Shown here: in pieces, positions 21,190 to 46,179 of the stretch | How the letters are laid out: each line of letters begins with the position of its first letter | How positions within the stretch are numbered: the first letter of the stretch is position 1 | The notes under the pieces: generated by a model | What the model was told of the DNA's origin: nothing | Seen by the model: only the letters and a program-made list of their open reading frames with translations | The model's database searches: none | NCBI GenBank assembly: GCA_036833455.1 | Contig: DAITPU010000001.1 | Span: 116,397-180,396 of the forward strand | Source of the DNA: a bacterium | GTDB lineage: Archaea; Nanobdellota; Nanobdellia; Pacearchaeales; GW2011-AR1 | Direction: 5' to 3' | Length of the DNA stretch: 64,000 nt | Program-made: the position numbers and the translations under genes

Positions 21190-21718
21190 AGGAGAAAATT
21201 TAATTTTAAAACAAGTTGAAGAAAAAGATGCTGAATACATTTCTAAATGGTTTTCAGATAAGGAGCAAAATAAATACATGAGTACTTTTGTTAGGACTAG
21301 AGATCATCCTATTGAAAAAATAAGAGAAGAAATTATAAATTCTAATGAAAATTTTGAAAGATTGTTTATGATTTATCTAAAAGGATATTGTAATCCAATA
21401 GGCCATTGCGGTATAGATGATTTAGACTTACACGATAAAAGAGGAGAAATTTTTTTTATAATTGGAGAAAAAGAATTTCAGGGAAAAGGTTACGGAAAAG
21501 AAACTGCAAAACTTCTTTTAAAACTTGGTTTTGAAAAATTAGGATTAAATACCCTTTTTGCAACTGCAACTTTAGAAAATGTATCTTCAATTAAAACATT
21601 AGAAAAAGTTGGATTTAAATATATTGGGATAAGAAGAGAATATAATTTTATAAATGATAAATATTTGGATGAAATTTTATTCGATATAACAAGGAAGGAT
21701 TACGAAAAAAATGAATAA
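21176..21718 (+). CDS. GNAT-family N-acetyltransferase
   Basis: GNAT motif A region IGEKEFQGKGYGKETAKLLLKLGFEKLGLNTLFA; overlaps both neighbours. Confidence 0.65.
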   Translation: MKSIEGENLILKQVEEKDAEYISKWFSDKEQNKYMSTFVRTRDHPIEKIREEIINSNENFERLFMIYLKGYCNPIGHCGIDDLDLHDKRGEIFFIIGEKEFQGKGYGKETAKLLLKLGFEKLGLNTLFATATLENVSSIKTLEKVGFKYIGIRREYNFINDKYLDEILFDITRKDYEKNE

Positions 21719-23502: not shown

Positions 23503-24143
23503 TTAAATCCTTCAGCTTCACAAAGTTCCTTAAATTCTTTGGCATTCTCTTCAGATCCTACAATAGATCCCCAATGCATCGGAACTACTAAAGAAGGTTT
23601 TATTATTTTTACCGCTTCTAATGCTTCCTCTGGATTCATGGTAAACCTCCCTCCTACGGGAAGCAATGCTACAAAAGTTTTATTTGGTTGCTTGTATCCA
23701 GTAAGTTTTTGCATTTCAGGAATAACATCTGTATCTCCAGAATGATAAACAATAACATTGTCCATTTTTATTACATACCCAATCAATCCTTCTGATTTTC
23801 CGTGAAAGGGTTTATCTACATTATAAGCAGGTATACAATTTAATTTTACTTCTCCAAAGTCAAATTCTTGACCCGCTTCAGCAAGTTCCATCCTTATGGG
23901 TTTTTGAAAACGAGCTATCTTACTTTGAGCATCCGCAGTTAAAACTATTTTGGTTCCTTTTTGGATGATCTTATCTATATCTTCAAAACTACAATGGTCA
24001 TAATGCCCATGAGTAATCAAAATTAAATCTGCCTTGGGCAATCCTTCTTTTATCCTATAAGGATCTACATAAATAACTTTTGAATTTTTAATAAGAAAAC
24101 CCGCATGGCCCAGCCAACTGATTTCAACTCCCCCTATATTCAT
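23478..24143 (-). CDS. metallo-beta-lactamase-fold hydrolase (UPF0173-like)
   Basis: LILITHGHYDHC (HxHxDH), downstream HSGDTD and PMHWG. Confidence 0.7.
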   Translation of the reverse strand: MNIGGVEISWLGHAGFLIKNSKVIYVDPYRIKEGLPKADLILITHGHYDHCSFEDIDKIIQKGTKIVLTADAQSKIARFQKPIRMELAEAGQEFDFGEVKLNCIPAYNVDKPFHGKSEGLIGYVIKMDNVIVYHSGDTDVIPEMQKLTGYKQPNKTFVALLPVGGRFTMNPEEALEAVKIIKPSLVVPMHWGSIVGSEENAKEFKELCEAEGFKCEILEKE

Positions 24144-24167: not shown

Positions 24168-25223
24168 TTAAGAGTTTTTATTCAAATATTCCATAATTCT
24201 ATTCTTAAATTTTTGAAAGTCTTCAGATTTTATTCTTGCTGCTGCTGCAGGAAAATGTCCTCCACCACTAGCCTCTTCCAAACCATTACAAGCATATTGC
24301 ATTAAAGAACCCATATCTTCATTTTTACCTTGATTTCTCGCAGAAATTTTCATAACTCCATTTGTTCTTCTATAAAAAATAAAAGAATAATCTGGTTTTA
24401 TTTTAGAAATTAAACTTGAAACATAAGAAGTTAATTCATATTTAGAATCAATCTCATAAAAGTAAACTTTTTCTTCAGGAAAAAATTCTTTTTTATCCGA
24501 AAAATCTTCAACAATCCTATCAACTTCTTCCTCAATTATATCGTGTATTCTATCCAATTCTTCTAAATCTCTTTTTTTTATCAAATCGTAAACATAAGAA
24601 ACATTCATTTTATAATAAACTAAGGCTGAAGAAATTTTTCTTGCAATTCTTCCTGGAACAGAACTAGAAATATTTTCTAAACTAACTTCTGGGTAAATCT
24701 TCATTATGTATTCTAAATTTTCGGATTTATTATAAGAAAATTCTGAAAAGAGTGTTGAACATAAAAGCCAATCCCACTCTGAAGAATCAAATACTTCTCT
24801 TCCCAAATCAAAAACTGTCAAAGCAGAGCAATCTTCAGAAATAGTTTTTATAATTTTATTAAATCCATAAACATTAGAACTCATGGGATGATGATCAATT
24901 AAAAAAACGTCCATCTTTGTTCTTAATTCAACATATCCTTCAAAATCAATAGAATCAACCCCTAAATCACAAAAGAAAACTTTAGTTATGCCCTTCCCTT
25001 CTAAAGTATAAATTACTTCTTTGATCATATTAGGATTGATACTTAAAAAATCAATATACTCTATCTTTAAATTCTTCTTTTCAAGAATTTTTTCCAAAAA
25101 GACTGCAGAAGCAATTCCATCTAAATCATTGTGAGTCAAAATAGCTATCTTATCTCTGAAAGTAATTAAATCAACAAACTCAAAAAATTCTTTCTTACTT
25201 CCCTTCAAATACTCTATGCGCAT
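24168..25223 (-). CDS. DHH/DHHA1-family phosphoesterase (NrnA-like)
   Basis: AILTHNDLDG, FLIDHHP, C-terminal GGGHFPAAAA (DHHA1 GGGH). Confidence 0.75.
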   Translation of the reverse strand: MRIEYLKGSKKEFFEFVDLITFRDKIAILTHNDLDGIASAVFLEKILEKKNLKIEYIDFLSINPNMIKEVIYTLEGKGITKVFFCDLGVDSIDFEGYVELRTKMDVFLIDHHPMSSNVYGFNKIIKTISEDCSALTVFDLGREVFDSSEWDWLLCSTLFSEFSYNKSENLEYIMKIYPEVSLENISSSVPGRIARKISSALVYYKMNVSYVYDLIKKRDLEELDRIHDIIEEEVDRIVEDFSDKKEFFPEEKVYFYEIDSKYELTSYVSSLISKIKPDYSFIFYRRTNGVMKISARNQGKNEDMGSLMQYACNGLEEASGGGHFPAAAARIKSEDFQKFKNRIMEYLNKNS

Positions 25224-27891: not shown

Positions 27892-29172
27892 CTATGGAGT
27901 GAGTCTTCTTCGATCTCTAGGAAAGAGAGTAACTTCTCTTATATTTTCAACACCCAATATGGCTTGAGAGAGACGTTCTAACCCGATACTCCATCCTGAG
28001 TGCATTGGAGCCCCATATCTGAAAGCATCTACGTACCAACTAAAATCTTTTGGATTTAAACCTTTATTTTTAAGTTGCTTAATTAAAATTTCTGCAACAT
28101 GTACTCTTTGGCCTCCTGAACTTATTTCCAATCCCCCATAAAGAGCATCAAAACCTCCGGAAACTTTTTCATTTTTTGGCCAGATATAAAATGGTTTTAT
28201 TGAAGAGGGCCATTCATAAGTAAAAACTATTGAATTCGGAAATAATTCGCAAAGTTTCTTTTCTGCAGAAGGATCAAAATCTTCCCCTTCTTTCATTTTA
28301 AAACCATTTTTATTTAAAATTTCAAGCGCTTCAGAATATTTCAAATATTTAGATTTAGGTACCTTCAAATCTAATTTTAAAATCTTTAATTCTTTCTCAC
28401 AATCTTTTAAAATTTTTTTAACAATAAATTGAACGCTCTTTTCCAAATAATTCATAACTTGCATATCATCGCAAAAACCTATTTCTATATCCATCTGCCT
28501 AATTTCATTTATATGTCTCGTAGTATCATGTTTTTCTGCTCTCCAAATAGGACCAGTTGAGAAAACTTTTTCTAATGAAATAGCCATTAATTGTTTATAC
28601 AGTTGAGGAGATTGCGCCAAATATGCATCTTTATCAAAATATTTTATTTTAAATAAGTCTGTTCCTCCCTCTGTAGAAGTTGCTATAATTCCGGGCGGTT
28701 GAATTTCCATAAACCCTTCTTTATAAAAAAATTCCCTAAATCCATTTATAATTGTAGATTGTATTCTAAATCTAGCAGCAACCTCTGGTTTTCTTAAATC
28801 TAAAGAACGATTGTCTAATCGATTCATTAAATCTGTATTAGTAGTTTTTTCATTTACATGAATAGGAAGTTTTTCTGCTTTATTCAAAATTTTTAACTCA
28901 TGAACAAAAACTTCTAAATTGGATAAAACAAAATCAGCTTTGACTTTTGCTTCTTTAACTTCCCCCACAATTTCAACTACACTCTCTAAACTTAAATTTT
29001 CAATTTCTTTCAAAAGTTCTTCTTTAACAACACATTGAACAATTCCTGTATTATCTCTCAATAGAATAAACTTTAATTTTGACAATCCTCTAATTTCATG
29101 GATCCATCCTTTAATTAAAACTTTTTTTTCTGGTCTTAATTTTTCAATATAACTTCTCTCCATATCAATCAA
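27892..29172 (-). CDS. aspS: aspartyl-tRNA synthetase (archaeal/eukaryotic type)
   Basis: QSPQLYKQLM, WRAEKHDTTRHINEIRQMDIE, GLERL motifs; N-terminal OB domain. Confidence 0.85.
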   Translation of the reverse strand: MIDMERSYIEKLRPEKKVLIKGWIHEIRGLSKLKFILLRDNTGIVQCVVKEELLKEIENLSLESVVEIVGEVKEAKVKADFVLSNLEVFVHELKILNKAEKLPIHVNEKTTNTDLMNRLDNRSLDLRKPEVAARFRIQSTIINGFREFFYKEGFMEIQPPGIIATSTEGGTDLFKIKYFDKDAYLAQSPQLYKQLMAISLEKVFSTGPIWRAEKHDTTRHINEIRQMDIEIGFCDDMQVMNYLEKSVQFIVKKILKDCEKELKILKLDLKVPKSKYLKYSEALEILNKNGFKMKEGEDFDPSAEKKLCELFPNSIVFTYEWPSSIKPFYIWPKNEKVSGGFDALYGGLEISSGGQRVHVAEILIKQLKNKGLNPKDFSWYVDAFRYGAPMHSGWSIGLERLSQAILGVENIREVTLFPRDRRRLTP

Positions 29173-29947: not shown

Positions 29948-31396
29948 TTATTGCTTTAAAAATTGATTAATAATTTTTGTGGCTTCTTCTCCACTTATCT
30001 GCCCCTTAAAATCCTTCATTATAAGCCCCATATAAGCATTAATACTTAAACCGGGTTTATCTTTAATAAGTTTAAAGATTTTCTCCCTTATTCCTTCTAT
30101 TTCAGGTTTATTTAATTTTATTGCTTCTTCTATATTCATGCCTGAAACAACTCTTTCTAATACTTGTTTTAAATCTGCCATATGCAACCTATCTTTGTAG
30201 ATTTTATCCAAAACAAAACTCAAGACATCTAAATTTAAAATTGATTCAATTTCTTCTAAATCCCTTTTTTCTCTAGAAGCAATTTCTTTAGGAAAAACTA
30301 AAAGCAATTTTCCAATTAGAGGAGCATTTCCATGTAAAGAATAAAGCTCTTTGAACTCATTTAATTTCCTATATTTGAATAAAAGATGAATCATTTCTTC
30401 ACTCAATCCTTTACTTTTTAAATCATCTTGAATTTCTCTTCTAAGTCTTGGCAAATTTTTCTTGACTAAATTTATTTTTTCTCTTGAAATTTTTAAAAGT
30501 TCTAAATCAGTTTCAGGATACATTCTGTGGGAACCCGGCATAGGACGAAGAAATTCTGTATTTCCATCTGGCAAACAATTTCTAACTTCAGACTGATTTT
30601 TTTGCCCTGAATCCAAAATTTTTTTTTGCCTTAAAACTTCCATTTCAACGCATTTTTCCATGATATTTGGATCCTGAAAACCTTTTATTTCAACTCGATT
30701 TGAATTTTTAATTGAAATATTTAAATCCTGCCTAATTGTACCGATTCCTCTTCTTACCCTTGAACTCCTTAAAATTTCTCCTATTTTCAAGGCTGCCTCC
30801 TTAACATGCGAAGCGTTCTTTAAATCTGGTTTTGTGGATATTTCAACTAAAGGAATTCCTAAACGATCTAATCGATAAAAAACACTTCCTTCTTCTTTTT
30901 TTATTAGCCTACAAGAATCTTCTTCTAAATAAATTGAATCTATCCGAACTTTCCCGTGTGAAGTGTCAAAATAACCATTTCTAGCAATCATCACTGTTCT
31001 TTGAAAACCAGATGTATTTGAACCATCAATTACGGTTTTACGCATAATTTGAGAAATTGGAATTAACTCGCAATTAAAAAGCAAAGCGATTTCAATTGCA
31101 ATTTCTAAAGCTTCTTCATTTATTTTATGGGGTGGTTCTTCATCCAATTCAACTAAGCAGGTGGTATCATAACCTTGATAAAAAAAATCTTCTCCCTTTT
31201 GATGTTGGTATTTTGCGGCTAAATCGACAATTCCTGATTCTCCTGCAACCAAATGTAAATTCCTTTTAATTTCAAAAAGCGGATTATCACTCCTTAGAAT
31301 AGAAGGGCAATTACAAAAAAGTTTATTACTATCTAATTGTTGATGAATTTCAAGCCCTGCTTTAAAACCAATCTTTTCATATTCCTCGTCTTTCAT
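29948..31396 (-). CDS. gatE: Glu-tRNA(Gln) amidotransferase subunit E (GatE); unusually short at 482 aa
   Basis: N-terminal GLEIHQQL...KLFCNCPS of the GatB/GatE family; immediately adjacent to gatD. Confidence 0.6.
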   Translation of the reverse strand: MKDEEYEKIGFKAGLEIHQQLDSNKLFCNCPSILRSDNPLFEIKRNLHLVAGESGIVDLAAKYQHQKGEDFFYQGYDTTCLVELDEEPPHKINEEALEIAIEIALLFNCELIPISQIMRKTVIDGSNTSGFQRTVMIARNGYFDTSHGKVRIDSIYLEEDSCRLIKKEEGSVFYRLDRLGIPLVEISTKPDLKNASHVKEAALKIGEILRSSRVRRGIGTIRQDLNISIKNSNRVEIKGFQDPNIMEKCVEMEVLRQKKILDSGQKNQSEVRNCLPDGNTEFLRPMPGSHRMYPETDLELLKISREKINLVKKNLPRLRREIQDDLKSKGLSEEMIHLLFKYRKLNEFKELYSLHGNAPLIGKLLLVFPKEIASREKRDLEEIESILNLDVLSFVLDKIYKDRLHMADLKQVLERVVSGMNIEEAIKLNKPEIEGIREKIFKLIKDKPGLSINAYMGLIMKDFKGQISGEEATKIINQFLKQ

Positions 31397-31426
31397 ATAA
31401 TATCAAAATAAAAAGGATTTATTAAA

Positions 31427-32698
31427 TTATTCAAACTCAATTCTATCATTAATTTCCCAAGAAAAATTTTCTAACATTTTTTTTCTAATATCCCAATCCT
31501 TATGGCCCAAAACCCAACCTAATTTTACTAAAGCAGTTTCAGACAACATATCCTCTAAATAAAGAACTCCTGAATCAACTAATTCTCTTCCAGTAACATA
31601 AACATAAGGATTTGTTCTTCCAAAAATTGTTTGAGATGTTGCACAAACAAAAATTCCTTTTTTCTGAATTTCTTTTAATTTCTTTATCCAAGAATTCCTA
31701 GACCCAGAAGTTGCTATTTGTCCTAAACCCAACATTTCAATAATTAAACCTTTATAACCATTTTTTACATAATAATCTAAAATTTTTGGATCCTGCCCGG
31801 GATAAAATTTAATTAATCCAATTTTTTCTTCAAACTTAAAATCCAAAAAACTTTTTCTATTTTTATCAATTAATTTGTAATCAGAAATTTTTTTTATTGA
31901 ATCTCTACTTATTTCTAAAAAAGCTTTCCGATTAACTGGCTTAAATGCATCTCTTTTTGAAGAATGTAGTTTCCTGACTTTAGTTCCAGGAATACCCAAA
32001 CAAAAATAATCTTCTGAATTTGCATGTCCAACTACAACTACTTCAGCTATATTAGAAGTTGCAACTTTAGCTGCACATTCAAGATTTAATCTTGCATCAG
32101 AACTAGCTCTGTCCGTGCTCCTCTGAGAATACGTTAAAACCACAGGTTTATTCAAATCTCTAATAAAGAAACTTAATGCGGCAGAAGTAAAATGCAAGCT
32201 ATCCGTACCATGCAAAATGATTATCCCAGATATTGAAGAATCATTTAAATAATTACCACAAACTTTTGCTATTTTTTGCCAATCTTTAAAATCCAAATTT
32301 TCAGATCCCTTCATAAAAGGCACTTCTATTTTTTTTACGTTAACTAAATTAAATATTTCTGGATAATAAAGAAATAAATCTTCCGGACTTTCAACAAAAT
32401 CTACTCCTCCTTTTCCAGGGTTTAACCTTGAAGAAATAGTTCCACCAGTTACAATTAGAACAATGCCTGGCTTATCTAAATTTTCAGTAAAATTTAAATC
32501 TAGTTTTTTCTCTTCTTTAAAATTCTTTATTTTATTTATTTTCAATATATCTTTCTTATTAAATCCAATGTTATAACCATTCTCCAATTTTAATAAAATT
32601 AATCCGGATTCTGGGCTTTCCAAATAAGTACCCCTATATTTTTCTTTAGAAAGAGATATTTCAACAAAATCTCCTGAATCAAATTTTTGTTTTTCCAT
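31427..32698 (-). CDS. gatD: Glu-tRNA(Gln) amidotransferase subunit D (GatD; asparaginase-like)
   Basis: N-terminal extra domain then asparaginase motifs VTGGTISS and HGTDSL. Confidence 0.8.
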   Translation of the reverse strand: MEKQKFDSGDFVEISLSKEKYRGTYLESPESGLILLKLENGYNIGFNKKDILKINKIKNFKEEKKLDLNFTENLDKPGIVLIVTGGTISSRLNPGKGGVDFVESPEDLFLYYPEIFNLVNVKKIEVPFMKGSENLDFKDWQKIAKVCGNYLNDSSISGIIILHGTDSLHFTSAALSFFIRDLNKPVVLTYSQRSTDRASSDARLNLECAAKVATSNIAEVVVVGHANSEDYFCLGIPGTKVRKLHSSKRDAFKPVNRKAFLEISRDSIKKISDYKLIDKNRKSFLDFKFEEKIGLIKFYPGQDPKILDYYVKNGYKGLIIEMLGLGQIATSGSRNSWIKKLKEIQKKGIFVCATSQTIFGRTNPYVYVTGRELVDSGVLYLEDMLSETALVKLGWVLGHKDWDIRKKMLENFSWEINDRIEFE

Positions 32699-34767: not shown

Positions 34768-34949
34768 ATACTAACGTCTAATAAAAATTTAAAAATAACA
34801 ATTTTTTTATTTCTGATTCTTCCTACTCATTGAATAAACTTCGTTTTCTAAAGAGAGCGTTTTCTCTAGAAGACTTGCCAATTCTTTTTCTATTTCCTCT
34901 ATTTCTGTCTCATTCATTTTTAAAAAATTTAATCCAAAACCTAAATTAA

Positions 34950-34996
34950 ATAAGAAGCCTTCTTAATTTAATTCAGATTTATCTGAATTAAATTAA
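34950..34996. repeat. two adjacent perfect palindromes (TAAGAAG-C-CTTCTTA and a 16-bp inverted repeat TTAATTTAATTCAGAT-tt-ATCTGAATTAAATTAA) between convergent genes
   Basis: Read directly from the sequence; sits between convergently transcribed genes. Confidence 0.6.
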
Positions 34997-35085
34997 TCCT
35001 TTTTAATCTTAGCAATAGCTAAGTTCAAATTACAAAAATTGAACTCAACCAATTTGCTCATACAAAAATATGTAAACAAAACTTT

Positions 35086-35613
35086 TTAAGCATTTTGATT
35101 TATTTGATTGTTCTTAAGAAAAAAGTAACTTCCAACTAAACCAACAAAAATAAAAAACAATCCAATGTAATTAAATAATTTTAAATTTGGATCAATTAAA
35201 ACTTGTCCAACAATAGAAGCCCCAGTTATAGAAGGAAAAGAAAACAAAAGACCAATAAAAAAAGAAAAACTTATAGAAATTAAAGTTACTCTTTTCATAA
35301 GATTACTTCCTTTAACTGGTTCGGTTTTCAAAGTTTCTAAATATCTTTTAATTTTTTCATTGGATTCTTCTAAAACCTCTCTTTGGGAAGAAGGCACATG
35401 TTGTTCTGCCGCATTCTGTAATTTAAGAATATTACTTTGAAGCTCTTTCATTTTTCTTCCATAATAATTTTCTCCAGGAAAAGATCCCTTTGACTTCTTT
35501 AAGAAAGCAATTTCATCTATGTCTTTTTTTATTTCAGTCAAATAACGATGAGAATTGAATTTTCCATGCAACATATAATACCTTTCAAATTGTCTTTCAT
35601 CAATACTATCCAT
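35086..35613 (-). CDS. membrane protein (cytoplasmic coiled-coil N-domain, 2 C-terminal TM), hypothetical
   Basis: ORF with hydrophobic C-terminal segments. Confidence 0.35.
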   Translation of the reverse strand: MDSIDERQFERYYMLHGKFNSHRYLTEIKKDIDEIAFLKKSKGSFPGENYYGRKMKELQSNILKLQNAAEQHVPSSQREVLEESNEKIKRYLETLKTEPVKGSNLMKRVTLISISFSFFIGLLFSFPSITGASIVGQVLIDPNLKLFNYIGLFFIFVGLVGSYFFLKNNQINQNA

Positions 35614-35633
35614 TCAAGAAAAATGAATATAAA

Positions 35634-36671
35634 CTATTTAAAATTATCTTCTAATTTATTTTTAAAATCAACAATCTGATCAGAACTTATTTGGCCCCCA
35701 ATTGCATCTTCATGCCCTCCAGCACTAGAAAAAGGAAAATCCTTCATAATCTCAATTAATTTAGTCTTAATTTTTTTTCCTCTTATTGAAAAATTTACTT
35801 TTCCTTGATTCAAATAACACACAGCAATTATTTTTTCAGGATAGTCGTAACTCAAACGATTGGCTAAATCTGCACTCATACTAATGTTTCCAGAATACTT
35901 AAAAAAAATTAAATTCGAAGAACCAATTACATTTAACTTAGCTTTAGCTATCAAATTTTTAAATTTATTATCAACCTCTAAAAATCTTTTATGTAAACTT
36001 CTCGTTTTTAAATTTTCTTCCAAAACTTCATAAGGAGTTTTAACCCCAATAAAAAAATGGATCATTTTATTTACTGAACTAGTTTTATCTTTAAGACCTA
36101 TTCCCATCATTCTAGAAATCTTTCCAATTTCAGAATTATAAAAAATATTAAATGCAGATTCAGAATTTAATCCTAAATCAGGATATTCTTGAAAAAAGAT
36201 TTTATTTTCTGGAGGAAGATACTTATCTGCAATACATCCGGCAATATAAATCCACAAATCTTCTTTTTTAGAATTAATTTGGTAACAAATTTTTGTTACG
36301 GGCACATTTTCAGGAGAATCAGAGTAAAGAGGATTATAATATTTTATGTAATCTGGGAAATTGAAATCTTTTTCATGATGGTCTATCCAAAGGATAGGAA
36401 TATTTCTTTCTCTTAAAGATTCAAAAAAATCTGAGCTAACCCTAGGTTGATCTAAAATTACCACATAATCCGGATTAAACTCATCTATTCTTCTAAAATA
36501 ATTCATATCTAAAGGAGAGGTCTTTACTGGGATTCCAATTCCCCTTCCTATAAATCTTCGTAAAAGAAGAAAACTGCAAAACCCATCTTGATCATTATCA
36601 AAATAAAATAAAGGATTTTGAGATTTATTTAATTCTTCTTTAATTTCTTCTATTTGAAAATTATTTAACAT
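35634..36671 (-). CDS. DHH/DHHA1 phosphoesterase, DhhP-like candidate c-di-AMP/pApA phosphodiesterase
   Basis: DNDQDGFCS, WIDHHE, C-terminal SSAGGHEDAIGG (GGH). Immediately downstream of and co-directional with disA. Confidence 0.65.
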   Translation of the reverse strand: MLNNFQIEEIKEELNKSQNPLFYFDNDQDGFCSFLLLRRFIGRGIGIPVKTSPLDMNYFRRIDEFNPDYVVILDQPRVSSDFFESLRERNIPILWIDHHEKDFNFPDYIKYYNPLYSDSPENVPVTKICYQINSKKEDLWIYIAGCIADKYLPPENKIFFQEYPDLGLNSESAFNIFYNSEIGKISRMMGIGLKDKTSSVNKMIHFFIGVKTPYEVLEENLKTRSLHKRFLEVDNKFKNLIAKAKLNVIGSSNLIFFKYSGNISMSADLANRLSYDYPEKIIAVCYLNQGKVNFSIRGKKIKTKLIEIMKDFPFSSAGGHEDAIGGQISSDQIVDFKNKLEDNFK

Positions 36672-36708
36672 GGTAAAAATAAAAAAAAGCCATTAAAAAA
36701 CCTATGGG

Positions 36709-37794
36709 TTAAATCCTTTTATTTAAAACTACTTTTTCCCTTAAATTATAAATTTCTTCTCTAAAAAAACTAACCATCGTTTCACTTTCTAAAAAATCTA
36801 AAAGTTTTTGGTTGCTTGCAGAAAGAATTTCTTTTAAATTATCAAAATTCCCAATTAAAATATCTACATATCTATCCGGAAGATTTGTTTTTCCTAAAAT
36901 TCGAATTCCCTTAGGAGAAATAGGTTTATCATGAAGCTCTTCAAATAATAATCTTAAAATATTCATTGGTTCCAATAAAAATTCAAAATCCATATTTTCA
37001 AGTATACTCAAGGAAATTGTTGAAGTTTGACCAAGATAATCTCTAAGAATAAGTTCCTCTTCTCTTTCTAATCCGCTAGTTAATTCTTTGGCTCTCATTT
37101 TAATAATAAATCCCTCTCTACCCAATTCAACAAGATATCTTTCAACTATGGCTGCAATTCTCTTTATGATTTCTATTCTTTGTAAAACTAAACAAACGTT
37201 ATTCATTCTAACATTTCTTTGAAGTTCAAGGGAATTTAAATTTTCTAAAAAACCATCATAAACATCCCTTTGCTTTTCTAAAACTTGCAAAGTTTCAGAA
37301 ACTCTTCTCAATATCTCAGAACTACTTTCTAATTGATAATTAATCTCTCCTTGATAAAGAGAAATTTTATTCTTTCTTTCTGAAACAGCAATTGTTACCG
37401 TATTAGCTTGTTTAGCCGTTCTTTCTGCAGATTTATGCCTTGTTCCTGTTTCTTTCGTATGGATTCCAGAAGCTGGAACTAAAAGAGTATTAGCAGAAAG
37501 GATATCTTTTGCATCTTTGGATAAAATTATTGCTCCATCCATTTTAGCAAGTTCTACTAATTTTTGGGAAGTGAATTTGGAATTTATTCTAAACCCCCCT
37601 TCAACAATTCCTTCTAAATTCCCGTTATCAAAAACAATCAATGCCCCCATTCTTGCCCTAAGTAGATCATCTAAGGCACTTCTAAGACTCGTTCCTGGAG
37701 CAACCATTCTAAGAACATCAATAAAATCTTTTTCTTTTGAAACTTCTTTATTCGAAGATAAAATCTCTTCAATTTCAATAATTTCCTCTTCCAT
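36709..37794 (-). CDS. disA: DisA-type diadenylate cyclase (c-di-AMP synthase)
   Basis: DAC domain motifs DGAIILS and GTRHKSAERTA, long helical linker, C-terminal HhH-like KGIRILGKTNLPDRYVDILIGNF; 361 aa. Confidence 0.75.
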   Translation of the reverse strand: MEEEIIEIEEILSSNKEVSKEKDFIDVLRMVAPGTSLRSALDDLLRARMGALIVFDNGNLEGIVEGGFRINSKFTSQKLVELAKMDGAIILSKDAKDILSANTLLVPASGIHTKETGTRHKSAERTAKQANTVTIAVSERKNKISLYQGEINYQLESSSEILRRVSETLQVLEKQRDVYDGFLENLNSLELQRNVRMNNVCLVLQRIEIIKRIAAIVERYLVELGREGFIIKMRAKELTSGLEREEELILRDYLGQTSTISLSILENMDFEFLLEPMNILRLLFEELHDKPISPKGIRILGKTNLPDRYVDILIGNFDNLKEILSASNQKLLDFLESETMVSFFREEIYNLREKVVLNKRI

Positions 37795-37834
37795 AGAAAA
37801 AAGAAATTATAGAATTATTTAAAGATTTATGCGT

Positions 37835-38827
37835 TTAAATTTCACCTAATTTTGTTTTAGCAACAATCAAAGGAAAAACAAGCGTTGCCTCTGAATATAG
37901 TTTAATCATTTTAGCCTCAGGCAAAATCTTCCCCCAACTAACTGCTTCATCAGGCAATGCTCCCGAATCACTTCCATCAAATTCCTGCGCAGTATTTATA
38001 TAAACCGCATAATTTGCCCCATTTCTAAACATATTTGCATTGCAAATGCTATGTTTAACTGCTCCACTTCCCAAAACTATAATTCCTGTCTTTTCTTTCC
38101 CAAGACTAGAGTTATTCATATCCAAAATATCTTTAGATATGTCGATTAGAAAATCTGGATGATTTGCCTTAAAGAAGTAGATCATATCTCCTAAACTTCC
38201 ATCTAAAATTGAGGGACAATAAACCTGAATTCCATTTTTCCAAGCCCAATAATAAATTGAATTTTTATCGTTTATTTTTTCTCCCATTTTTAATATTAAT
38301 TCACTTCCACTGAGAATCTTTCCCGTTTTTTTTTGCCTAGTGTAAAATTCTTCTAAGATGGGCATAATAAACTCTTCAAAATCACAATACCTAGAATTGG
38401 GAATTAGAATATTTCCTGCACGATTAATTCCTTTTTTCCTAAGTAAAGCTCCTTTATCATTAAATTCTCCTAATTTAAAATCTCCTAAACATTTTATTAT
38501 GTCTTCTTCGATCCCCCCTGCACTTGAAACTAAAAAATTTACTTTCTTATTTTCCGCTAAAAACCTTATTATCTCTCTTAACCCAGAAGTTACAATATTT
38601 GAAGTATAACCTAAATAAATAAATGCCTTTTCGTCTATCATTTCATTTATAATTTCCGTTGCAATTGAAAAATTCTTTGCTTGAATTCCAGTTGAAGAAT
38701 AACTATCTAAGATTTTTTCATAATTTATTCCTTTATTAAAATCATAACCTTTAATAGAAATTCCTTCTGCTTCAGAACTCCTTCTCAAAACGTTTTTTCT
38801 TGCTTCTTTTTCCATTAAATAAGGCAA
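37835..38827 (-). CDS. dys: deoxyhypusine synthase
   Basis: YTSNIVTSGLREIIRFL, SSAGGIEEDIIK, C-terminal FDGSDSGALPDEAVSWGKI. Confidence 0.85.
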   Translation of the reverse strand: MPYLMEKEARKNVLRRSSEAEGISIKGYDFNKGINYEKILDSYSSTGIQAKNFSIATEIINEMIDEKAFIYLGYTSNIVTSGLREIIRFLAENKKVNFLVSSAGGIEEDIIKCLGDFKLGEFNDKGALLRKKGINRAGNILIPNSRYCDFEEFIMPILEEFYTRQKKTGKILSGSELILKMGEKINDKNSIYYWAWKNGIQVYCPSILDGSLGDMIYFFKANHPDFLIDISKDILDMNNSSLGKEKTGIIVLGSGAVKHSICNANMFRNGANYAVYINTAQEFDGSDSGALPDEAVSWGKILPEAKMIKLYSEATLVFPLIVAKTKLGEI

Positions 38828-38905
38828 GAACTCTATTTTTTAAATCTTACCAAACTAACATTCAAAGATAATAATCTTTTTAAAATTAAAAAAACTAGAG
38901 AGGTA

Positions 38906-39097
38906 ATGAATAAAGTACTAAAAATAATTTTAGGTTTGCTCCTAATCCTAGGTTCTTTTGCATTAATTCTTCCAGGATTTCCTTTAGAATCTTGGGGAAA
39001 TGCTGCTTTAAATCTTATAAAAGGAGGGATTATCCTTTTAGTAATTTTAGCAGGAATTATCCTTCTAGTTATAGGTTTAATTGAACTTAAAGAATAA
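38906..39097 (+). CDS. small 2-TM membrane protein
   Basis: 63-aa hydrophobic ORF. Confidence 0.3.
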   Translation: MNKVLKIILGLLLILGSFALILPGFPLESWGNAALNLIKGGIILLVILAGIILLVIGLIELKE

Positions 39098-39685
39098 TTA
39101 AAGCAAAATTATAAGTAATCCTTCAATTATTGCTGCAATAAATAAAAGAGGTAAAACTAATAGTAGGTAAGTCCAAATTGACTTATTAAACAATTCACGA
39201 AAATTCCTTCTTCCGTTCTTATAAAAAAAACTAAACCCTAACTTTACTCCCATTCCAAGAGAGATAAATAATGCTGGCAATTCAAAGATTCCATGAGGAA
39301 CTAAAGCTAAAAGTGAAAAATGCCCAAACTCGGCTACACTTAAATTACTTACAAAACCTACTACAAATCCATTTGAAACTGATGATAAAAGAGGAAATAT
39401 TCCAAATATAACTCCTAAAACTAACCCAAAAAAACTAGCTAATGAATTATTTGAAAATAAAAACAAAATCATTTCTCTTAAAGAAAAACCTTCTGTTTCA
39501 AGAATTAATTTTTTTAGGTATTCTAGCAAAGATTCTTGAATTGCGAGAGGTAAATCAATGAAAAATCCAAGTCCAAAAAAAATAAAAAAAATACCCATAA
39601 TTAAAAAGATAAATCCTTTAATTTTATGAAGATAATCAAAAACTTCGCTATATTTTAACTCTAAAAATCTTTTAAGTTTTTGCAT
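39098..39685 (-). CDS. SpoIIM/DUF95-family membrane protein
   Basis: Multi-TM; FSNNSL...NG...PHGIFELPA pattern typical of the DUF95 family. Confidence 0.45.
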   Translation of the reverse strand: MQKLKRFLELKYSEVFDYLHKIKGFIFLIMGIFFIFFGLGFFIDLPLAIQESLLEYLKKLILETEGFSLREMILFLFSNNSLASFFGLVLGVIFGIFPLLSSVSNGFVVGFVSNLSVAEFGHFSLLALVPHGIFELPALFISLGMGVKLGFSFFYKNGRRNFRELFNKSIWTYLLLVLPLLFIAAIIEGLLIILL

Positions 39686-40356
39686 TAACTAAATCTCCTG
39701 GAAATTAATTTTACTTTATTTGGAAATTTTTTTCTTAAAAACAACCCATAAAAAATTCCGGCTAATAAGCCCCCTAAATGGGCAACATTCCCAATAGGAA
39801 CATTTCCTAAAATTGAAACTAACCAGAGTAAAACTAACATTCCTGGTGCAGCATACTTTATTTTAATTGGAATTGGGATAAACATCATATAAACGGGTAA
39901 ATTAGGAGTCAAAAAAATTAAAACTCCTATTAGACCAAATAAAGCTCCACTAGCCCCTACTGCAAAAGAATTCCAATCTCCAGGAAATAATGCTGGACTT
40001 AAGACAAATAATAAACCAGCAAATAACCCTGCAAAAAGATAAAAAAATAAGAATCTTTTTGGACCCAAAATTTTTTCTAATAGAGACCCTACAAAAAATA
40101 AAGATAAAACGTTCACAAAAAGATGGAAAAAACCCGCATGCATAAACATGCTAGTCAAAAAAGTCCAAATATAAAAATTTTCGAAAATAATTCTGGGATT
40201 AAGGGCAAGGTATTCTATTGGAATAAACTTAAGAGCCAAAAGAATGGAAAAAAGAAAATAAAAAAATACATTTAAAATTATAAGCCAAGTGTTAACACTA
40301 AAGCTAGAAAAAAAAGATTTTCTTCTTTTAGTTAAAGGAATTTCATAAACTACCAT
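39685..40356 (-). CDS. rhomboid-family intramembrane serine protease
   Basis: GASGALFG (GxSG catalytic Ser) and AHLGGLLAG (catalytic His), 6 TM. Confidence 0.75.
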   Translation of the reverse strand: MVVYEIPLTKRRKSFFSSFSVNTWLIILNVFFYFLFSILLALKFIPIEYLALNPRIIFENFYIWTFLTSMFMHAGFFHLFVNVLSLFFVGSLLEKILGPKRFLFFYLFAGLFAGLLFVLSPALFPGDWNSFAVGASGALFGLIGVLIFLTPNLPVYMMFIPIPIKIKYAAPGMLVLLWLVSILGNVPIGNVAHLGGLLAGIFYGLFLRKKFPNKVKLISRRFS

Positions 40357-40376
40357 TTTATACTTTTTTTAAAAGA

Positions 40377-41153
40377 TTATTTCTTTTTAGGAGACTTCTT
40401 AATTAATTTTTTAGTAGAAGATTTAATTTTCTTAGATTCTTTAATTTTTGATTTTGTCTCCTTTTTTTTAGGGACTTTTTCTTTTACCTTTTTATCTTGA
40501 ATTTTTTTAGAAGAAATTGCTTCTTTTCTTTTTAATTCTCTTTTTTTCTTGGCTTCCAATTTCTTTTCTTCCTTTTCTTTCTCTCTCTTTTTCAAATCCA
40601 AACTTTTTTTCTTATCTGATTTATTTAATTCTTTTTGAATCTCTTCTTCAATAATCTTCAATTTATCATCTATTCTTTTTAAAGAATTATTTAAATCTTT
40701 AATTAGTTTAGAATTATCCTTTGTTTCAAAAAGCTCTCCACATTCATCACAAGTAAAATCCATTAGTAAAGCTTGATTTTCATCATATTCTAAATTACAA
40801 AGTTTACAGGCATAAAAAACACTTTTTTCTCTAGCAGAAATCTCTTTTAAAATTTCAGATTTCTTTTCATTTAAAAGATTTTTAAGAAATTCTAAGGATT
40901 TTAAAACATCAAATCTCCAAAAGTAAGTATACCATCCTTTCTTTTTATCTTTCTTTCTTTCAGATAAAACCAATCCATGATCTGAAATTTTATAAAGAAT
41001 ATTTCTTGTTTGATTAATAGTTATATCTAATTTTTTAGCTATATTAAACTCATTAGCATATTTTTGACTGTTCAATAAATCTGCAATGGGCTCGGCTGAT
41101 TTTCCAGCAATAATAACCACAACCTCTTTAAGCAAATTATCTAACATAACCAA
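40377..41153 (-). CDS. tfe: transcription factor E alpha (TFE) with a long Lys-rich C-terminal tail
   Basis: N-terminal winged helix, zinc ribbon YACKLC...FTCDECG, then about 100 aa K/E-rich. Confidence 0.55.
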   Translation of the reverse strand: MVMLDNLLKEVVVIIAGKSAEPIADLLNSQKYANEFNIAKKLDITINQTRNILYKISDHGLVLSERKKDKKKGWYTYFWRFDVLKSLEFLKNLLNEKKSEILKEISAREKSVFYACKLCNLEYDENQALLMDFTCDECGELFETKDNSKLIKDLNNSLKRIDDKLKIIEEEIQKELNKSDKKKSLDLKKREKEKEEKKLEAKKKRELKRKEAISSKKIQDKKVKEKVPKKKETKSKIKESKKIKSSTKKLIKKSPKKK

Positions 41154-41286
41154 TTTAGAAAAAATTATATTAAATATCTTTCGGTAAAAGAATTTAATCT
41201 TCTTTAAAATTAAAAAGAGAGCCTAATTTAAAAAAATAACATTTTTAAACTATATATCCTACAATATATTATAAAAAGAGGATAAA

Positions 41287-41856
41287 ATGGGCATTTTTTC
41301 AAAAAGTAAAGATAAACAAAAAGAAAAGAATTACTCTTCTCAAAAAATTCCAGAATTGCCTTCTTTGCCTAGTCTTCCCCAATATAATTCCTCGCCTAAT
41401 TTTCCATTAATGGATGATTATGAAGAAAAAAAAGAAATACACCAACTTCCAAGTTTTCCTTCTAGTCCAACAGGAGATATGTTTTCGAAAAATACCATAA
41501 AAAGTGCCGTAAAGGGAGAACCTGCCCTTAAGTATAATTATGAAGATGATGATGAAGATTTAGAAATTGAACCTCCAAGATATCACAAGGAGATTTCAAA
41601 TAATCAATTTGAAAAGAAAGTTATGAAAGAAAATTATGAAATAAAACCTGTCTTTGTAAGAATAGATAAATTTCAAGAAGGATTAAAATTATTTGAAGAA
41701 ACAAAAGAAAATCTTGGAGAAATTGACAAACTTTTAAAGGAAGTCAAACACTTAAAAGAAAAAGAATCAGAAGAATTAAGTTCTTGGGAAAAGGATTTAG
41801 AAAAAATAAAAAACCAAATAGAAAAGATTAATCAAGAAATCTTCTCTAAAATATAA
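41287..41856 (+). CDS. hypothetical acidic coiled-coil protein
   Basis: ORF; P/S-rich N-terminus, coiled-coil C-terminus. Confidence 0.3.
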   Translation: MGIFSKSKDKQKEKNYSSQKIPELPSLPSLPQYNSSPNFPLMDDYEEKKEIHQLPSFPSSPTGDMFSKNTIKSAVKGEPALKYNYEDDDEDLEIEPPRYHKEISNNQFEKKVMKENYEIKPVFVRIDKFQEGLKLFEETKENLGEIDKLLKEVKHLKEKESEELSSWEKDLEKIKNQIEKINQEIFSKI

Positions 41857-43273: not shown

Positions 43274-43765
43274 TTATTTATCTGAATTCCAAGAAGAATT
43301 TGTTTTTTTAATTAATTTAATTAAAAAAGGTTTAACAGAATTTTTCCAAGCATAAAAAGAGTCTTCAATAAATTTCGATTGTGAATCAATGTCCTTTTCC
43401 AATAAAACAAGGGAATATTTTGTTGAAACGTTCATACAAATTTTAATTACTTCCCAAATTTCTTTCTTGTCTTTTTCTGAATTAAATATTTTAAACTCCA
43501 CTTGATTTAAATAATTATTTGGAGAAGGGAAAATTAAACTATTTAAATAATTATTCCAAATACGAAAGTAATCTACAATTTTGCTTCCTAATTGGGGAAA
43601 AAAATTTTCACGAACAAATCCCTGTTCAAAAACAGAATCATATAGATTAAATTCTTCTTCTAATTCATTTAAAGTTAATTTTAATCCGGATTCTTTTTTA
43701 AACTCCTCAAATCTCCATTCAAATTCCTTTTTTAATTCTTCTTTATTTATCGTCATTCTAACCAA
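43274..43765 (-). CDS. hypothetical protein
   Basis: 163-aa ORF. Confidence 0.3.
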   Translation of the reverse strand: MVRMTINKEELKKEFEWRFEEFKKESGLKLTLNELEEEFNLYDSVFEQGFVRENFFPQLGSKIVDYFRIWNNYLNSLIFPSPNNYLNQVEFKIFNSEKDKKEIWEVIKICMNVSTKYSLVLLEKDIDSQSKFIEDSFYAWKNSVKPFLIKLIKKTNSSWNSDK

Positions 43766-46179
43766 AAGGAAGGCATCCCTAATTTAGATTTTTTAGATTT
43801 ATTTTTTGGATCATATTTTTCTTTATCGTTAACAGAATAAACACTTACCCTTAAATTTAAATCTTTTTCTAATTTTTCTAGATTTATTTTATCTTTGTCC
43901 GAAGGAACAACATAAATAAATATCTCTTTAAAATTTTCCTTAATCTCATTATCTTTAAGAATATTAAGAATTTTTGCATTTAATGAAAAATCCTGTTTTG
44001 AATTTTGTGGTTTAATAATCCTAAATTCTGGCCAAGGAGAATTTGAAATAAATCCCTTATTTCCTAATCTTTCCCAAAGTTCCTCAGTAATATGTGGACA
44101 AATAGGATTTAACAGTTTTAAAAAATTATCCAAAATTTTTTTACTAATTTCTCCTTTTTCCATTTCTTCAAAAAAGTCTCTAAGTTCAATTGTGGCTTTC
44201 CTATATTCGAAATTCCCATAATATTGACCAACATTTTTTATCGTTTTATTCATTTTATTCTCAAGATAATCCGAAGAATTACCTAATTTAGGATTTTCAT
44301 ATAAATCAAAGATTTTTCTAATAAACCTTAAACTACCAATTATCCCTTTTTCATTCCAATCAATATCTTTGTCAGGGGAAGCCAAACTACAAAGAAAAAA
44401 TCTTGCGGTATCTATTCCATATTTATCTGATACACTTTCAGGTAAAACTACATTCCCTTTGGATTTACTCATTCTCTCTCCTCCAGAAGCATGAAGCATA
44501 CCTTGGTGAAACAATTTCTTTGCAGGCTCATCAAAATTAATCAAACCAATATCTCTTAAAAATTTTGTATAAAATCTTGAATAAATTAGATGCATACATG
44601 CGTGTTCTGGACCACCTATATAAATATCAACCGGACACCAATTCTTAACTTTATTTGAATCAAAAATCTTAAGAGAATTTCTTGGATCACAATATCTCAT
44701 AAAATACCATGAAGAATTAACAAAAGTATCCATCGTATCTGTTTCTCTTTTTCCCTCTTTACCACAATTTGGGCAATCAGCCCTTATCCAATCTTTATTA
44801 GTCTCTAGAGGATTCCCCTCTCCAAATTCAACTTTATCTGGAAGTATAACTGGCAAATCTTCTTCAGGAACGGGAACAGCACCACAATTAGGACAATAGA
44901 TTATAGGAATAGGAGTCCCCCAATATCTCTGTCTGGATATTCCCCAATCTCTAAGCTTAAAATTAATAACTTCTCTAGCAATTCCTTTATTTCCTAACCA
45001 AGCATTAATTTTTCTTTTAGCCTCTTCATTATTTAGCCCATCGAACTTGCCTGAATTTATTAACTTTCCTTGATTTGTAATAGCCCTAAAATCATCTAAA
45101 TTTCCCTCAATAACTTGCTTAATTTTAATTTTATATTTTTTTGCAAATTCAAAATCTCTTTGATCATGTGCTGGCACAGCCATTACCATTCCGGAACCAT
45201 AATCTGCAACAACGAAATTTCCAGCATAAACTGGAACTTCTTCTCCTGTTGCAGGATTAATTGCATAAGAGCCAGTGAAAACACCTTGCTTTTCCATATC
45301 TGCTAAATCCTTTTCTGAAACTGTTTTCAAACTTTCTAAAAATTCTTCAATTATCTCTTTCCTATCATAAGTAACTAAATCATCGAGATTAGGATGTTGA
45401 GCTGAAACAACCATAAAAGTAACTCCAAAAATAGTATCTGGTCTTGTAGTAAAAACAGGCCATTTTTTTCCATTAATTTGAAAATCTATTTCAACACCAA
45501 AACTCTTTCCTATCCAATTTCTCTGCATTAATTTAGTCCTCTCTGGCCAATCCATCTTATTCAAATTTTCATAAAGCTCATCTGCATAATCGGTTATTTT
45601 TAAAAACCACTGTTTTAGTTTCTTTATTTGAACTTTAGATCCGCAACGATCACAATTCCCCGTCTGTGCTTGTTCATTTGCTAAAACAGTTTTACAAGAA
45701 GGGCACCAATTTACATTTGACTCCTTCCTATAGGCTAAATTTTTCTCCAACATTTTCAAAAAAATCCATTGATCCCATTTGTAATAATTTGGATCGGAAG
45801 TAACAACTAATCTAGACCAATCATAACTCAATCCCAGAGCTTTTTGCTGGTTCATAAAATTATTCATAGAATTTTCAGTATAATCTTTAGGATGAATCTT
45901 CTCTTTTATAGCTGCATTTTCTGCGGGCAACCCCAATGAATCATAACCCATTGGGTGCAAAACTTCGAAACCATTCATCAGCTTAAATCTTGCGACAATA
46001 TCTCCAATAACATAATTCCATGCATGTCCCATATGTAATCCTGAACCAGATGGATAGGGAAACATTTCAAGAACATAAAATTTCTTTTTTTCAGAATTCT
46101 CTTTAACTTCAAATATATTCGAATCTTTCCATCTTTTTTGCCACTTATCTTCAATTAATTTAAAGTTAATCTCATCCAT
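43753..46179 (-). CDS. leuS: leucyl-tRNA synthetase, bacterial-type
   Basis: MFPYPSGSGLHMGHAWNYVIGDIVARFKLMNGFEVLHPMGYDSLGLPAENAAIK (HIGH region of bacterial LeuRS), CP1 domain, RMSKSKGN; 808 aa. Confidence 0.85.
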   Translation of the reverse strand: MDEINFKLIEDKWQKRWKDSNIFEVKENSEKKKFYVLEMFPYPSGSGLHMGHAWNYVIGDIVARFKLMNGFEVLHPMGYDSLGLPAENAAIKEKIHPKDYTENSMNNFMNQQKALGLSYDWSRLVVTSDPNYYKWDQWIFLKMLEKNLAYRKESNVNWCPSCKTVLANEQAQTGNCDRCGSKVQIKKLKQWFLKITDYADELYENLNKMDWPERTKLMQRNWIGKSFGVEIDFQINGKKWPVFTTRPDTIFGVTFMVVSAQHPNLDDLVTYDRKEIIEEFLESLKTVSEKDLADMEKQGVFTGSYAINPATGEEVPVYAGNFVVADYGSGMVMAVPAHDQRDFEFAKKYKIKIKQVIEGNLDDFRAITNQGKLINSGKFDGLNNEEAKRKINAWLGNKGIAREVINFKLRDWGISRQRYWGTPIPIIYCPNCGAVPVPEEDLPVILPDKVEFGEGNPLETNKDWIRADCPNCGKEGKRETDTMDTFVNSSWYFMRYCDPRNSLKIFDSNKVKNWCPVDIYIGGPEHACMHLIYSRFYTKFLRDIGLINFDEPAKKLFHQGMLHASGGERMSKSKGNVVLPESVSDKYGIDTARFFLCSLASPDKDIDWNEKGIIGSLRFIRKIFDLYENPKLGNSSDYLENKMNKTIKNVGQYYGNFEYRKATIELRDFFEEMEKGEISKKILDNFLKLLNPICPHITEELWERLGNKGFISNSPWPEFRIIKPQNSKQDFSLNAKILNILKDNEIKENFKEIFIYVVPSDKDKINLEKLEKDLNLRVSVYSVNDKEKYDPKNKSKKSKLGMPSFWLE

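Follow-up and report, generated by a model that had tools for sequence, protein, structure and literature searches.

Cyclic di-AMP (c-di-AMP) signalling in archaea has been described as a euryarchaeal trait based on the diadenylate cyclase (DAC) DacZ, and dacZ is absent from the DPANN, TACK and Asgard archaea (2025, PMC12699388). What, then, is the role of a gene for a bacterial-type cyclase, DisA, in a DPANN genome, and is the DHH-family phosphoesterase encoded immediately downstream the enzyme that removes its product? The question is raised by a 64,000-nt stretch of a Pacearchaeales contig (DAITPU010000001.1, positions 116,397 to 180,396; assembly GCA_036833455.1), which is termed the window throughout and in which disA and the downstream gene, here called DHH1, lie on one strand and 37 nt apart. 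An earlier reading of the sequence (the original prediction) had taken the two genes to be a compact, co-transcribed module for c-di-AMP synthesis and degradation, probably acquired from bacteria. The window is archaeal, with Rfam matches to archaeal small-subunit (16S) rRNA at 1341-2786 and to large-subunit (23S) rRNA at 3276-6098 and a GC content of about 29% outside the rRNA operon, and both open reading frames (ORFs) and their motifs are all present where they had been placed, as is the direct succession of the two genes on one strand. The account favoured here, which we consider somewhat probable, is that of an active archaeal DisA residing beside a RecJ-like core housekeeping enzyme.

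Judged by profile and structure comparisons, the 361-amino-acid (aa) product of disA is a genuine DisA-family diadenylate cyclase. It scores 325.2 bits against the NCBIfam DisA model NF010009 (cut-off 201), with aa 19-333 aligned to positions 4-328 of the 357 in the profile, and Pfam places both a DAC (DisA_N) domain and a DisA-linker domain in it (Table 1). The motifs KMDGAII (aa 84-90) and ETGTRHKSAER (aa 115-125, of which GTRHKSAER spans aa 117-125) are present, and the protein matches Thermotoga maritima DisA in the PDB (3c1y, E 4.6e-50); matches of such strength do not arise by chance. An AlphaFold2 model (model confidence, pLDDT, 85.8) aligns in Foldseek over its full length to DisA of Mycobacterium tuberculosis, T. 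maritima and Mycobacterium smegmatis (E 1e-27 to 1e-24), and the linker is modelled as long helices at aa 160-191, 197-239 and 242-267. Two other cyclase families were considered and rejected: the DacZ model NF041371 gives 26.3 bits against a cut-off of 430, and the CdaA model TIGR00159 gives 50.2 bits against 188.8. The DisA architecture that had been proposed as distinct from the archaeal DacZ type is thereby borne out. Indeed DacZ/CdaZ proteins (Haloferax volcanii DacZ, Methanocaldococcus jannaschii CdaZ and PyaDAC), which share with the window protein an archaeal DAC domain and the presumed product c-di-AMP, begin with a PK_C-like domain and end with the DAC, whereas here the DAC is N-terminal and is followed by the DisA linker. 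In 44 archaeal DisA homologues S138 and R140 are invariant, together with the residues of the DGA and RHK motifs detailed in Table 1. Since DGA and the remaining catalytic positions show little or no variation and the RHK and SERK substitutions described below are conservative, an active cyclase is to be expected, and it is very likely that archaeal DisA makes c-di-AMP. A second DAC domain was not found by tblastn across the window.

The archaeal protein departs from its bacterial relatives in three respects, namely a catalytic-site motif, the C-terminal domain and the genomic partner. When it is set against bacterial DisA (3c1y; 9y4s from M. tuberculosis; B. subtilis-type proteins; NF010009), the N-terminal DAC domain with its DGA motif, the three-helix linker and a C-terminal helical domain of equal length are shared and the alignment is full-length, but the identity is 32-45%, RHK stands in the catalytic motif and the glycine hairpins of the helix-hairpin-helix (HhH) domain are lost. 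Across the archaeal crown clade, to which the window protein belongs, RHR is replaced by RHK, and SRRR or SQRR by SERK, whilst bacterial relatives keep RHR. In the C-terminal domain the bacterial hairpin consensus KIPRLP ... VEGIGEvRA reads KTNLPD ... LESETMV. In three bacterial DisA proteins the 72 C-terminal residues match the Pfam models HHH, HHH_2 and HHH_5 (26-32 bits); these three models give no significant match in the C-termini of the window protein and three archaeal orthologues. The segment nevertheless has a bacterial-like length and five predicted helices, and its pLDDT in the AlphaFold2 model exceeds 90, such that the C-terminal HhH-like segment of the original prediction holds as to homologous position and helical content and fails as to a recognizable HhH signature. 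Deep archaeal branches retain weak HHH_5 or HHH_2 matches (18-28 bits), which places the decay of the HhH signature inside the archaeal clade. The genomic context differs as well: the bacterial gene is accompanied by radA/sms (Zn-ribbon, RecA-like ATPase and Lon_C domains) in 64 of 66 loci, whereas the archaeal gene, in its archaeal host, lies in a dhs-...-DHH1 block with radA/sms not adjacent. RadA/Sms was found in none of 94 archaeal loci, nor anywhere in the window. With both the HhH signature and RadA absent, the canonical DNA-integrity scanning control has probably not been retained in the crown of the archaeal clade.

Archaeal DisA sequences are set well apart from bacterial ones. A scan of one genome per species recovered 14 archaeal loci at 50-64% identity and thereafter Bacillota, a few Actinomycetota and others at 37-45% identity. 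Homologues at 60-75% identity are plentiful, and those that bear names are entered as 'DisA' in metagenome-assembled genomes (MAGs) of Pacearchaeota, Nanoarchaeota or simply 'archaeon'; archaeal DisA is already annotated as such in many public MAGs. When 50 archaeal and 65 bacterial sequences were aligned, the archaeal proteins were monophyletic in 100 of 100 neighbour-joining bootstraps, with 49-75% identity inside the clade and a median archaeal-bacterial identity of 0.38 (maximum 0.44), and the bacteria nearest by identity were Clostridia and Bacilli. More divergent relatives, at 34-45% identity, came from a search of 1.8 billion cluster representatives. Three of these carry Woesearchaeota or Pacearchaeota names in public records, and three deep-branching ones were judged archaeal by the genes around them (L15e, L21e, Rpb4, fibrillarin and Nre). 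In a neighbour-joining tree the divergent archaeal proteins fall together with the window protein and stand separate from the bacterial ones. On these comparisons archaeal DisA is an archaea-only clade, found in DPANN of Pacearchaeota and Woesearchaeota type, and it most likely descends from a single old bacterial transfer into a DPANN lineage. A bacterial origin for the cyclase, as had been suggested, is accordingly plausible. Two of the divergent loci have surroundings of their own. In one, from Pacearchaeota (L166, 1-6011), disA (336 aa) has no DHH1 nearby and divergently adjoins an RNase J-like beta-CASP gene, and close by are Pfam domains of Rad50 type (SMC_N/AAA_23) and of Mre11 type (Metallophos, faint here and clear in L167). 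In the other (L172, 306-7014), a deep-branching archaeal disA (337 aa, weak HHH_5 match) ends an operon-like series of genes for ribosomal proteins and RNA polymerase subunits (S13, S4, S11, RpoD, L18e, L13 and S9).

The second gene of the pair has a different affinity from the one first proposed for it. DHH1 carries FDNDQDG (aa 24-30, with DNDQDG at 25-30), D74, IDHH (96-99), D149, S295xRG and GGH (318-320), and D25, D27, D29, D74, D97, H98, H99, D149, R297, G318, G319 and H320 are invariant, the motif residues having been checked in 42 members of a family that has 829 detectable members, the named ones all from DPANN-type MAGs. The Pfam DHHA1 model scores 29.9 bits (cut-off 25.9) and the DHH model 27.5 bits, 0.6 below its cut-off of 28.1. 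Searched as a single sequence, DHH1 has no sequence-level match in the PDB. The family profile matches M. jannaschii RecJ2, Staphylococcus aureus RecJ, Methanothermobacter thermautotrophicus RecJ-Cdc45, Pyrococcus furiosus RecJ and Thermococcus kodakarensis GAN; the sole match outside RecJ is a weak one (E 0.01) to 9r7o ('DHH family', Borrelia DhhP), and no NrnA, CnpB, GdpP or TmPDE chain was matched by the profile. The structural model (pLDDT 94.3) has an unbroken helix, aa 224-246, leading into DHHA1, and in Foldseek it is closer to RecJ2 (7.7e-16), RecJ-Cdc45, bacterial RecJ, GAN and a methanogen PAP phosphatase than to NrnA/Pde2 (1e-10 or weaker). A long continuous inter-domain helix separates RecJ and HAN from NrnA (PMC6158738). 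The RecJ-type profile and fold matches, together with the long helix, point to a compact RecJ/HAN-like core and not to a DhhP-like enzyme. Scores against curated RecJ models lie far below threshold (TIGR00644 recJ, 49.2 against 396.9; RecJ_archaeal, 22.9 against 360), and neither Pfam nor the model contains an OB fold, a CID or an S1/Zn-finger domain, the protein consisting of DHH and DHHA1 only; DHH1 is therefore placed in no curated RecJ family. As modelled, this DHH-DHHA1 phosphoesterase is compact, of RecJ/HAN type and equipped with a full two-metal active site, and the model has neither the split linker nor the short one that in NrnA-type enzymes produces a short, wide cleft for the substrate (PMC6158738, PMC8268124).

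These affinities can be set out against the characterized enzymes. With the stand-alone phosphodiesterases (PDEs) of c-di-AMP or of the dinucleotide 5′-phosphoadenylyl-adenosine (pApA), namely DhhP (9r7o), S. aureus Pde2/NrnA (8iu7), TmPDE (5o1u) and mycobacterial CnpB/NrnA (4ls9), DHH1 has in common a size of about 320-345 aa, an arrangement of one DHH and one DHHA1 domain, and the motifs DxD, D, DHH, D and GGH. What had been called a DhhP-like PDE thus has the expected catalytic motifs and a similar size, but its closest relatives are of RecJ and not of NrnA type. The best matches are M. jannaschii RecJ2 (7ykv), RecJ-Cdc45 (7bhi), the DHH domain of P. furiosus HAN (5yh1) and the bacterial RecJ core (1ir6), with which DHH1 shares a DxDxDG-type motif I and the long helix between DHH and DHHA1; unlike RecJ, HAN and GAN, it is a catalytic core only, with no CID insertion, OB fold or S1/Zn-finger N-terminal domain. 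Identity to the archaeal PAP phosphatases (M. thermolithotrophicus 8a8k; Pyrococcus yayanosii PyapApase) is only 17%, and the sulfate-assimilation context of PyapApase is not evident around DHH1. PyapApase, in which the linker helix is long, is strictly specific for 3′-phosphoadenosine 5′-phosphate (pAp) and cuts neither c-di-AMP nor pApA (PMC8268124). PyaPDE (TrkA_N-DHH-DHHA1) has the same DHH-DHHA1 module in an archaeon that makes c-di-AMP (PMC12699388), but DHH1 is without its TrkA_N/RCK_N sensor domain. The window encodes a further DHH/DHHA1 enzyme, DHH2, at the position given for it by the original prediction. DHH2 is barely similar to DHH1, scores 72.9 bits against RecJ_archaeal (below the cut-off of 360) and matches M. 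thermautotrophicus RecJ-Cdc45 in the PDB (3e-8). It adjoins a metallo-beta-lactamase-fold gene (23478-24143) and is probably a minimal RecJ/GAN-like paralogue.

Whether disA and DHH1 are a linked pair was examined from both sides. Starting from disA, 11 of the 14 archaeal species genomes have DHH1 as the next gene on the same strand, the gap ranging from -23 to +39 nt; of the other three, one has an adjacent DHH1 in inverted orientation (L010), one a split DHH1 at a distance of about 700 bp (L011), and one, a short contig, has none (L006). Starting from DHH1, metagenomes were scanned with the family profile, which gave 68 informative loci: disA is directly upstream in 37, upstream with an inserted ORF in four, and not present within about 4 kb in 27. 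In the 27 loci of this last kind DHH1 is preceded by dhs (deoxyhypusine synthase), by dhs and a pyridoxal-phosphate (PLP) decarboxylase or, once, by a reverse transcriptase. The conserved order is TFE, rhomboid, SpoIIM, dhs, the decarboxylase (optional), disA (optional) and DHH1, with proS following on the opposite strand; in 34 of 48 loci dhs immediately precedes disA, and in loci without disA it immediately precedes DHH1. The unrelated flanking genes dhs, SpoIIM, rhomboid and proS hold their order as well as the disA-DHH1 pair does, and with the whole block equally syntenic the adjacency of the two genes is weak evidence for a joint function. Loci with and without disA are interspersed in the DHH1 tree. 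The 12 catalytic residues compared are conserved at 100% in 54 disA-linked and 26 disA-less DHH1 sequences, and no alignment column cleanly splits the two sets, the best uncorrected P value (2.6e-5) reflecting a subclade. Amongst divergent DisA lineages, DHH1 orthologues at 36-46% identity occur downstream of disA at 0.23 kb (L170), 1.2 kb (L171) and 4.2 kb (L164), and DHH1 was not found within 5-6 kb of disA in L166, L168 and L172. The six bacterial disA loci listed (L015-L020) have no DHH1 homologue beside disA. Taken together, the disA-DHH1 link is old and frequent, obligate in neither direction and not clearly above background synteny, and on gene order DHH1 is a core gene of the archaeal lineage that occupies a fixed slot with or without disA. 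The suggestion that the DHH gene came as part of a bacterial acquisition is not supported, given its absence beside those six bacterial genes and its retention, with identical catalytic residues, in the 27 loci that lack disA.

Several of these loci have additional features. The gene of about 345 aa that lies between dhs and DHH1 in some relatives (L081, 152-1189; L103, 2932-3978; L106, 2767-3807; L154, 262-1308) was considered as a cryptic DisA and rejected, as it is a PLP-dependent Orn/Arg/DAP-decarboxylase-like gene; it replaces or accompanies disA, and beside dhs it looks like a polyamine/hypusine pair. The reverse-transcriptase gene directly upstream of DHH1 (L113, 476-1528) matches RVT_1 at 74 bits. 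On the Woesearchaeota contig L164 (6346-10078), a VapB-like/ParE toxin-antitoxin pair and genes of 823 and 199 aa separate disA from DHH1.

The intergenic sequences bear on whether the two genes are transcribed together. In the 40-nt dhs-disA spacer, the octamer TTTAAATA is a perfect match to the archaeal TATA-box consensus and may serve as the disA promoter. The spacer between disA and DHH1 contains runs of T and a weak TATA-like octamer, TTTTTTAA, at 36693-36700, that is, at -29 to -22 from the DHH1 start. Co-transcription of the pair in the window, which had been part of the original prediction, is not apparent from a spacer of this composition. In the wider sample, a [CT]TTWWAWA box begins between -34 and -26 from the DHH1 ATG in 43 of 85 loci, namely in 29 of the 54 that have disA and 14 of the 31 that do not, and few such boxes occur in the rest of the 150 nt preceding DHH1. 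This position-specific box indicates that DHH1 is often a transcription unit of its own, probably a leaderless one. A scan of 34800-41400 for sigma-70 promoters and intrinsic terminators, a method unsuited to an archaeon, revealed no enrichment, with 30 promoter sites against 31.9 expected and three terminators against 2.6.

How, then, do the two proteins function? Family membership, fold class, gene order and the state of the motifs are what the comparisons show; enzyme activities, the loss of DNA binding, the number and direction of transfers and the transcription units are inferred from them. In the explanation that we favour, an old single transfer from bacteria would have founded the archaeal DisA clade. 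Crown DisA would retain the DAC core and the oligomer-building helical linker, having changed RHR to RHK, dropped the HhH DNA-binding signature and lost the RadA/Sms partner, and would make c-di-AMP without canonical DNA-scanning control. DHH1 would be a housekeeping hydrolase for nucleotides or short nucleic acids, whether as an exonuclease, in the manner of a nanoRNase or as a phosphatase of the pAp type. In genomes with disA, clearance of pApA or c-di-AMP may be a further task of DHH1, which would nonetheless not be a dedicated PDE acquired along with disA, and its position would predate or outlast that of disA. That DisA is regulated without HhH scanning or RadA, and that DHH1 is a core housekeeping enzyme able to moonlight on pApA or c-di-AMP, is in our judgement reasonably likely. 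Were DisA in fact a pseudo-enzyme, or an enzyme with a changed product and a structural or other role, the shifts from RHR to RHK and from SRRR to SERK and the disappearance of both the HhH signature and the neighbouring RadA would find an explanation; yet the 44 homologues keep DGA, G-T-R-H and the S and R positions, the substitutions are conservative, the whole protein lies far above the curated DisA cut-off and the clade is conserved at 49-75% identity, which together make the loss of c-di-AMP synthesis very improbable. A pairing in DNA repair, with DisA as a DNA-integrity sensor and DHH1 as a nuclease partner in place of RadA/Sms, would suit the RecJ/HAN-type fold of DHH1, given that HAN and RecJ act in DNA repair (PMC6158738), as well as the linkage of bacterial disA to radA/sms in 64 of 66 loci and the position of one divergent disA (L166) beside Mre11/Rad50 and RNase J-like genes. 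It is hard to reconcile with the loss of the HhH DNA-binding signature in the clade, the lack of OB, S1, Zn-finger and CID accessory domains in DHH1, the persistence of DHH1 where disA is absent and the presence of DHH2, a paralogue closer to archaeal RecJ, and we regard it as improbable.

More weight attaches to the proposal with which the analysis began, that disA and DHH1 form a dedicated c-di-AMP operon in which DHH1 is the PDE for c-di-AMP, pApA or both, although we still consider this unlikely. The two genes share a strand and are 37 nt apart, DHH1 stands beside disA in 13 of the 14 archaeal species genomes, often abutting or overlapping it, its DHH two-metal site and GGH motif are intact, and all characterized DHH-type c-di-AMP PDEs share this catalytic core (PMC12699388). 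A number of further points weigh against the housekeeping account. A c-di-AMP maker needs a sink, and the 64 kb of the window showed no further candidate for a PDE. Crown-group disA, when present, is almost always directly upstream of DHH1, and where the genes abut or overlap co-transcription is implied in those genomes. The proximity of DHH1 to disA in three divergent lineages (L164, L170 and L171) with differing neighbours is some evidence for a selected link. RecJ-like and NrnA-like activities overlap, such that the fold class leaves the substrate unfixed (PMC8268124). The trees are neighbour-joining trees built from samples biased toward the best matches, and the absence of disA from 27 of 68 loci was scored at the locus only, so that a DAC elsewhere in those genomes is possible. 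Against a dedicated operon stand the RecJ/HAN-like character of DHH1, which is not that of NrnA, DhhP or GdpP, and the inability of the long-helix archaeal PyapApase to cut either c-di-AMP or pApA (PMC8268124). DHH1 is moreover unchanged in those 27 loci, dhs, SpoIIM and proS are equally syntenic, a TATA-like box of DHH1's own is frequent, and four disA loci (L006, L166, L168 and L172) have no DHH1 nearby. Of the compact synthesis-degradation module that had been predicted, the adjacency therefore stands, whilst the RecJ-like nature of DHH1, its persistence without disA and the disA loci that lack it weigh against a dedicated functional pairing and leave the module at most partly supported. 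A bolder version, in which DPANN archaea of Pacearchaeota and Woesearchaeota type have a c-di-AMP system made up of a horizontally acquired DisA without scanning apparatus and a RecJ/HAN-type DHH enzyme that degrades the messenger, appears doubtful. If true, it would represent a new structural class of c-di-AMP/pApA PDE and the first archaeal c-di-AMP circuit outside Euryarchaeota.

The archaeal DisA clade has a wider bearing. A conserved and widespread DPANN DisA clade would extend c-di-AMP to tiny-genome, probably symbiotic archaea, and a DisA without the HhH signature or RadA would constitute a natural experiment that could show which aspects of DisA function require the scanning of DNA. 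The locus also calls for caution, in that adjacency within strongly syntenic reduced genomes and membership of a shared catalytic superfamily are insufficient to name a PDE partner. A literature search for DisA or diadenylate cyclase in DPANN, Pacearchaeota, Woesearchaeota and Nanoarchaeota returned incidental word matches only. A 2023 survey by Galperin, 'All DACs in a row', reportedly records DAC genes in candidate archaeal phyla. As far as found, three points are unreported: that the HhH signature and RadA have been lost across the clade, that the locus is a fixed slot beside the core gene for a RecJ-like enzyme, and that disA is optional in this slot.

Table 1. Coordinates of disA, DHH1 and associated features in the window.
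Feature	Position	Strand	Basis or remark
175-aa predicted membrane protein, unknown family	35086..35613	-	ORF, 3' of DHH1 on the same strand
DHH1, 345-aa compact RecJ/HAN-like DHH-DHHA1 phosphoesterase (predicted)	35634..36671	-	Motifs, Pfam, model
disA-DHH1 spacer, 37 nt	36672..36708	-	T6, T8 and T5 runs; weak TATA-like TTTTTTAA
disA, 361 aa	36709..37794	-	ORF
DisA C-terminal domain, aa 290-361, homologous to DisA HhH domain	36712..36927	-	Both glycine hairpins lost
DisA-linker helical domain, aa 155-283	36946..37332	-	PF10635, 94.9 bits; AlphaFold2 helices
DAC catalytic domain, aa 39-149	37348..37680	-	PF02457, 93.2 bits
RHK replacing RHR, aa 119-121	37432-37440	-	R119, H120 and K121 invariant in 44 archaeal homologues
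DGA motif, aa 86-88	37531-37539	-	D86 and G87 invariant, A88 in at least 90% of 44 homologues
TTTAAATA, archaeal TATA-box consensus (perfect)	37816..37823	-	-29..-22 from disA ATG, in 40-nt dhs-disA spacer
dhs (deoxyhypusine synthase)	37835..38827	-	Pfam DS, 352 bits; upstream neighbour of disA
DHH2, 351-aa DHH/DHHA1 paralogue, closer to archaeal RecJ/GAN	24168..25223	-	Pfam DHH 41.7, DHHA1 36.7

The remainder of the window contains further genes that are recorded here for completeness. The 175-aa membrane ORF has no Pfam or NCBIfam match and, among the compared loci, is present in the window only; it also occurs on three assembled contigs with an identical DisA protein. At gathering thresholds Rfam detects rRNA and tRNA only in the window, with no ydaO-type c-di-AMP riboswitch. 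Two FtsZ paralogues of 359 aa each lie less than 6 kb apart, at 11701-12780 (+) and 17276-18355 (-). Tandem D-Ala-D-Ala-ligase-like ATP-grasp genes at 19136-20203 and 20200-21189 (+) are followed by a 180-aa ORF and then by a lysine-2,3-aminomutase-like radical-SAM gene (21711-22805, +). Paralogous class II tRNA synthetases of Asp/Asn/Lys type, with 0.8 kb between them, occupy 25784-27094 (-) and 27892-29172 (-), and GatE-like and GatD-like genes lie upstream of this pair at 29948-32698. An 808-aa leucyl-tRNA synthetase (43753-46179, -) carries a PF13603 editing domain (210 bits), a layout of bacterial type, and may represent a further gene of bacterial character in the archaeal genome. A 279-aa protein encoded at 52627-53466 (-) matches the C-terminal domain of the Fe-only hydrogenase large subunit at 145 bits. 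Finally, a 1581-aa ORF at 59168-63913 (-) has an SLT lytic transglycosylase domain (aa 1248-1352) and a DUF2272 domain (aa 1456-1563) near its C-terminus, and such peptidoglycan-degrading domains in an archaeon might suggest contact with bacterial cell walls.

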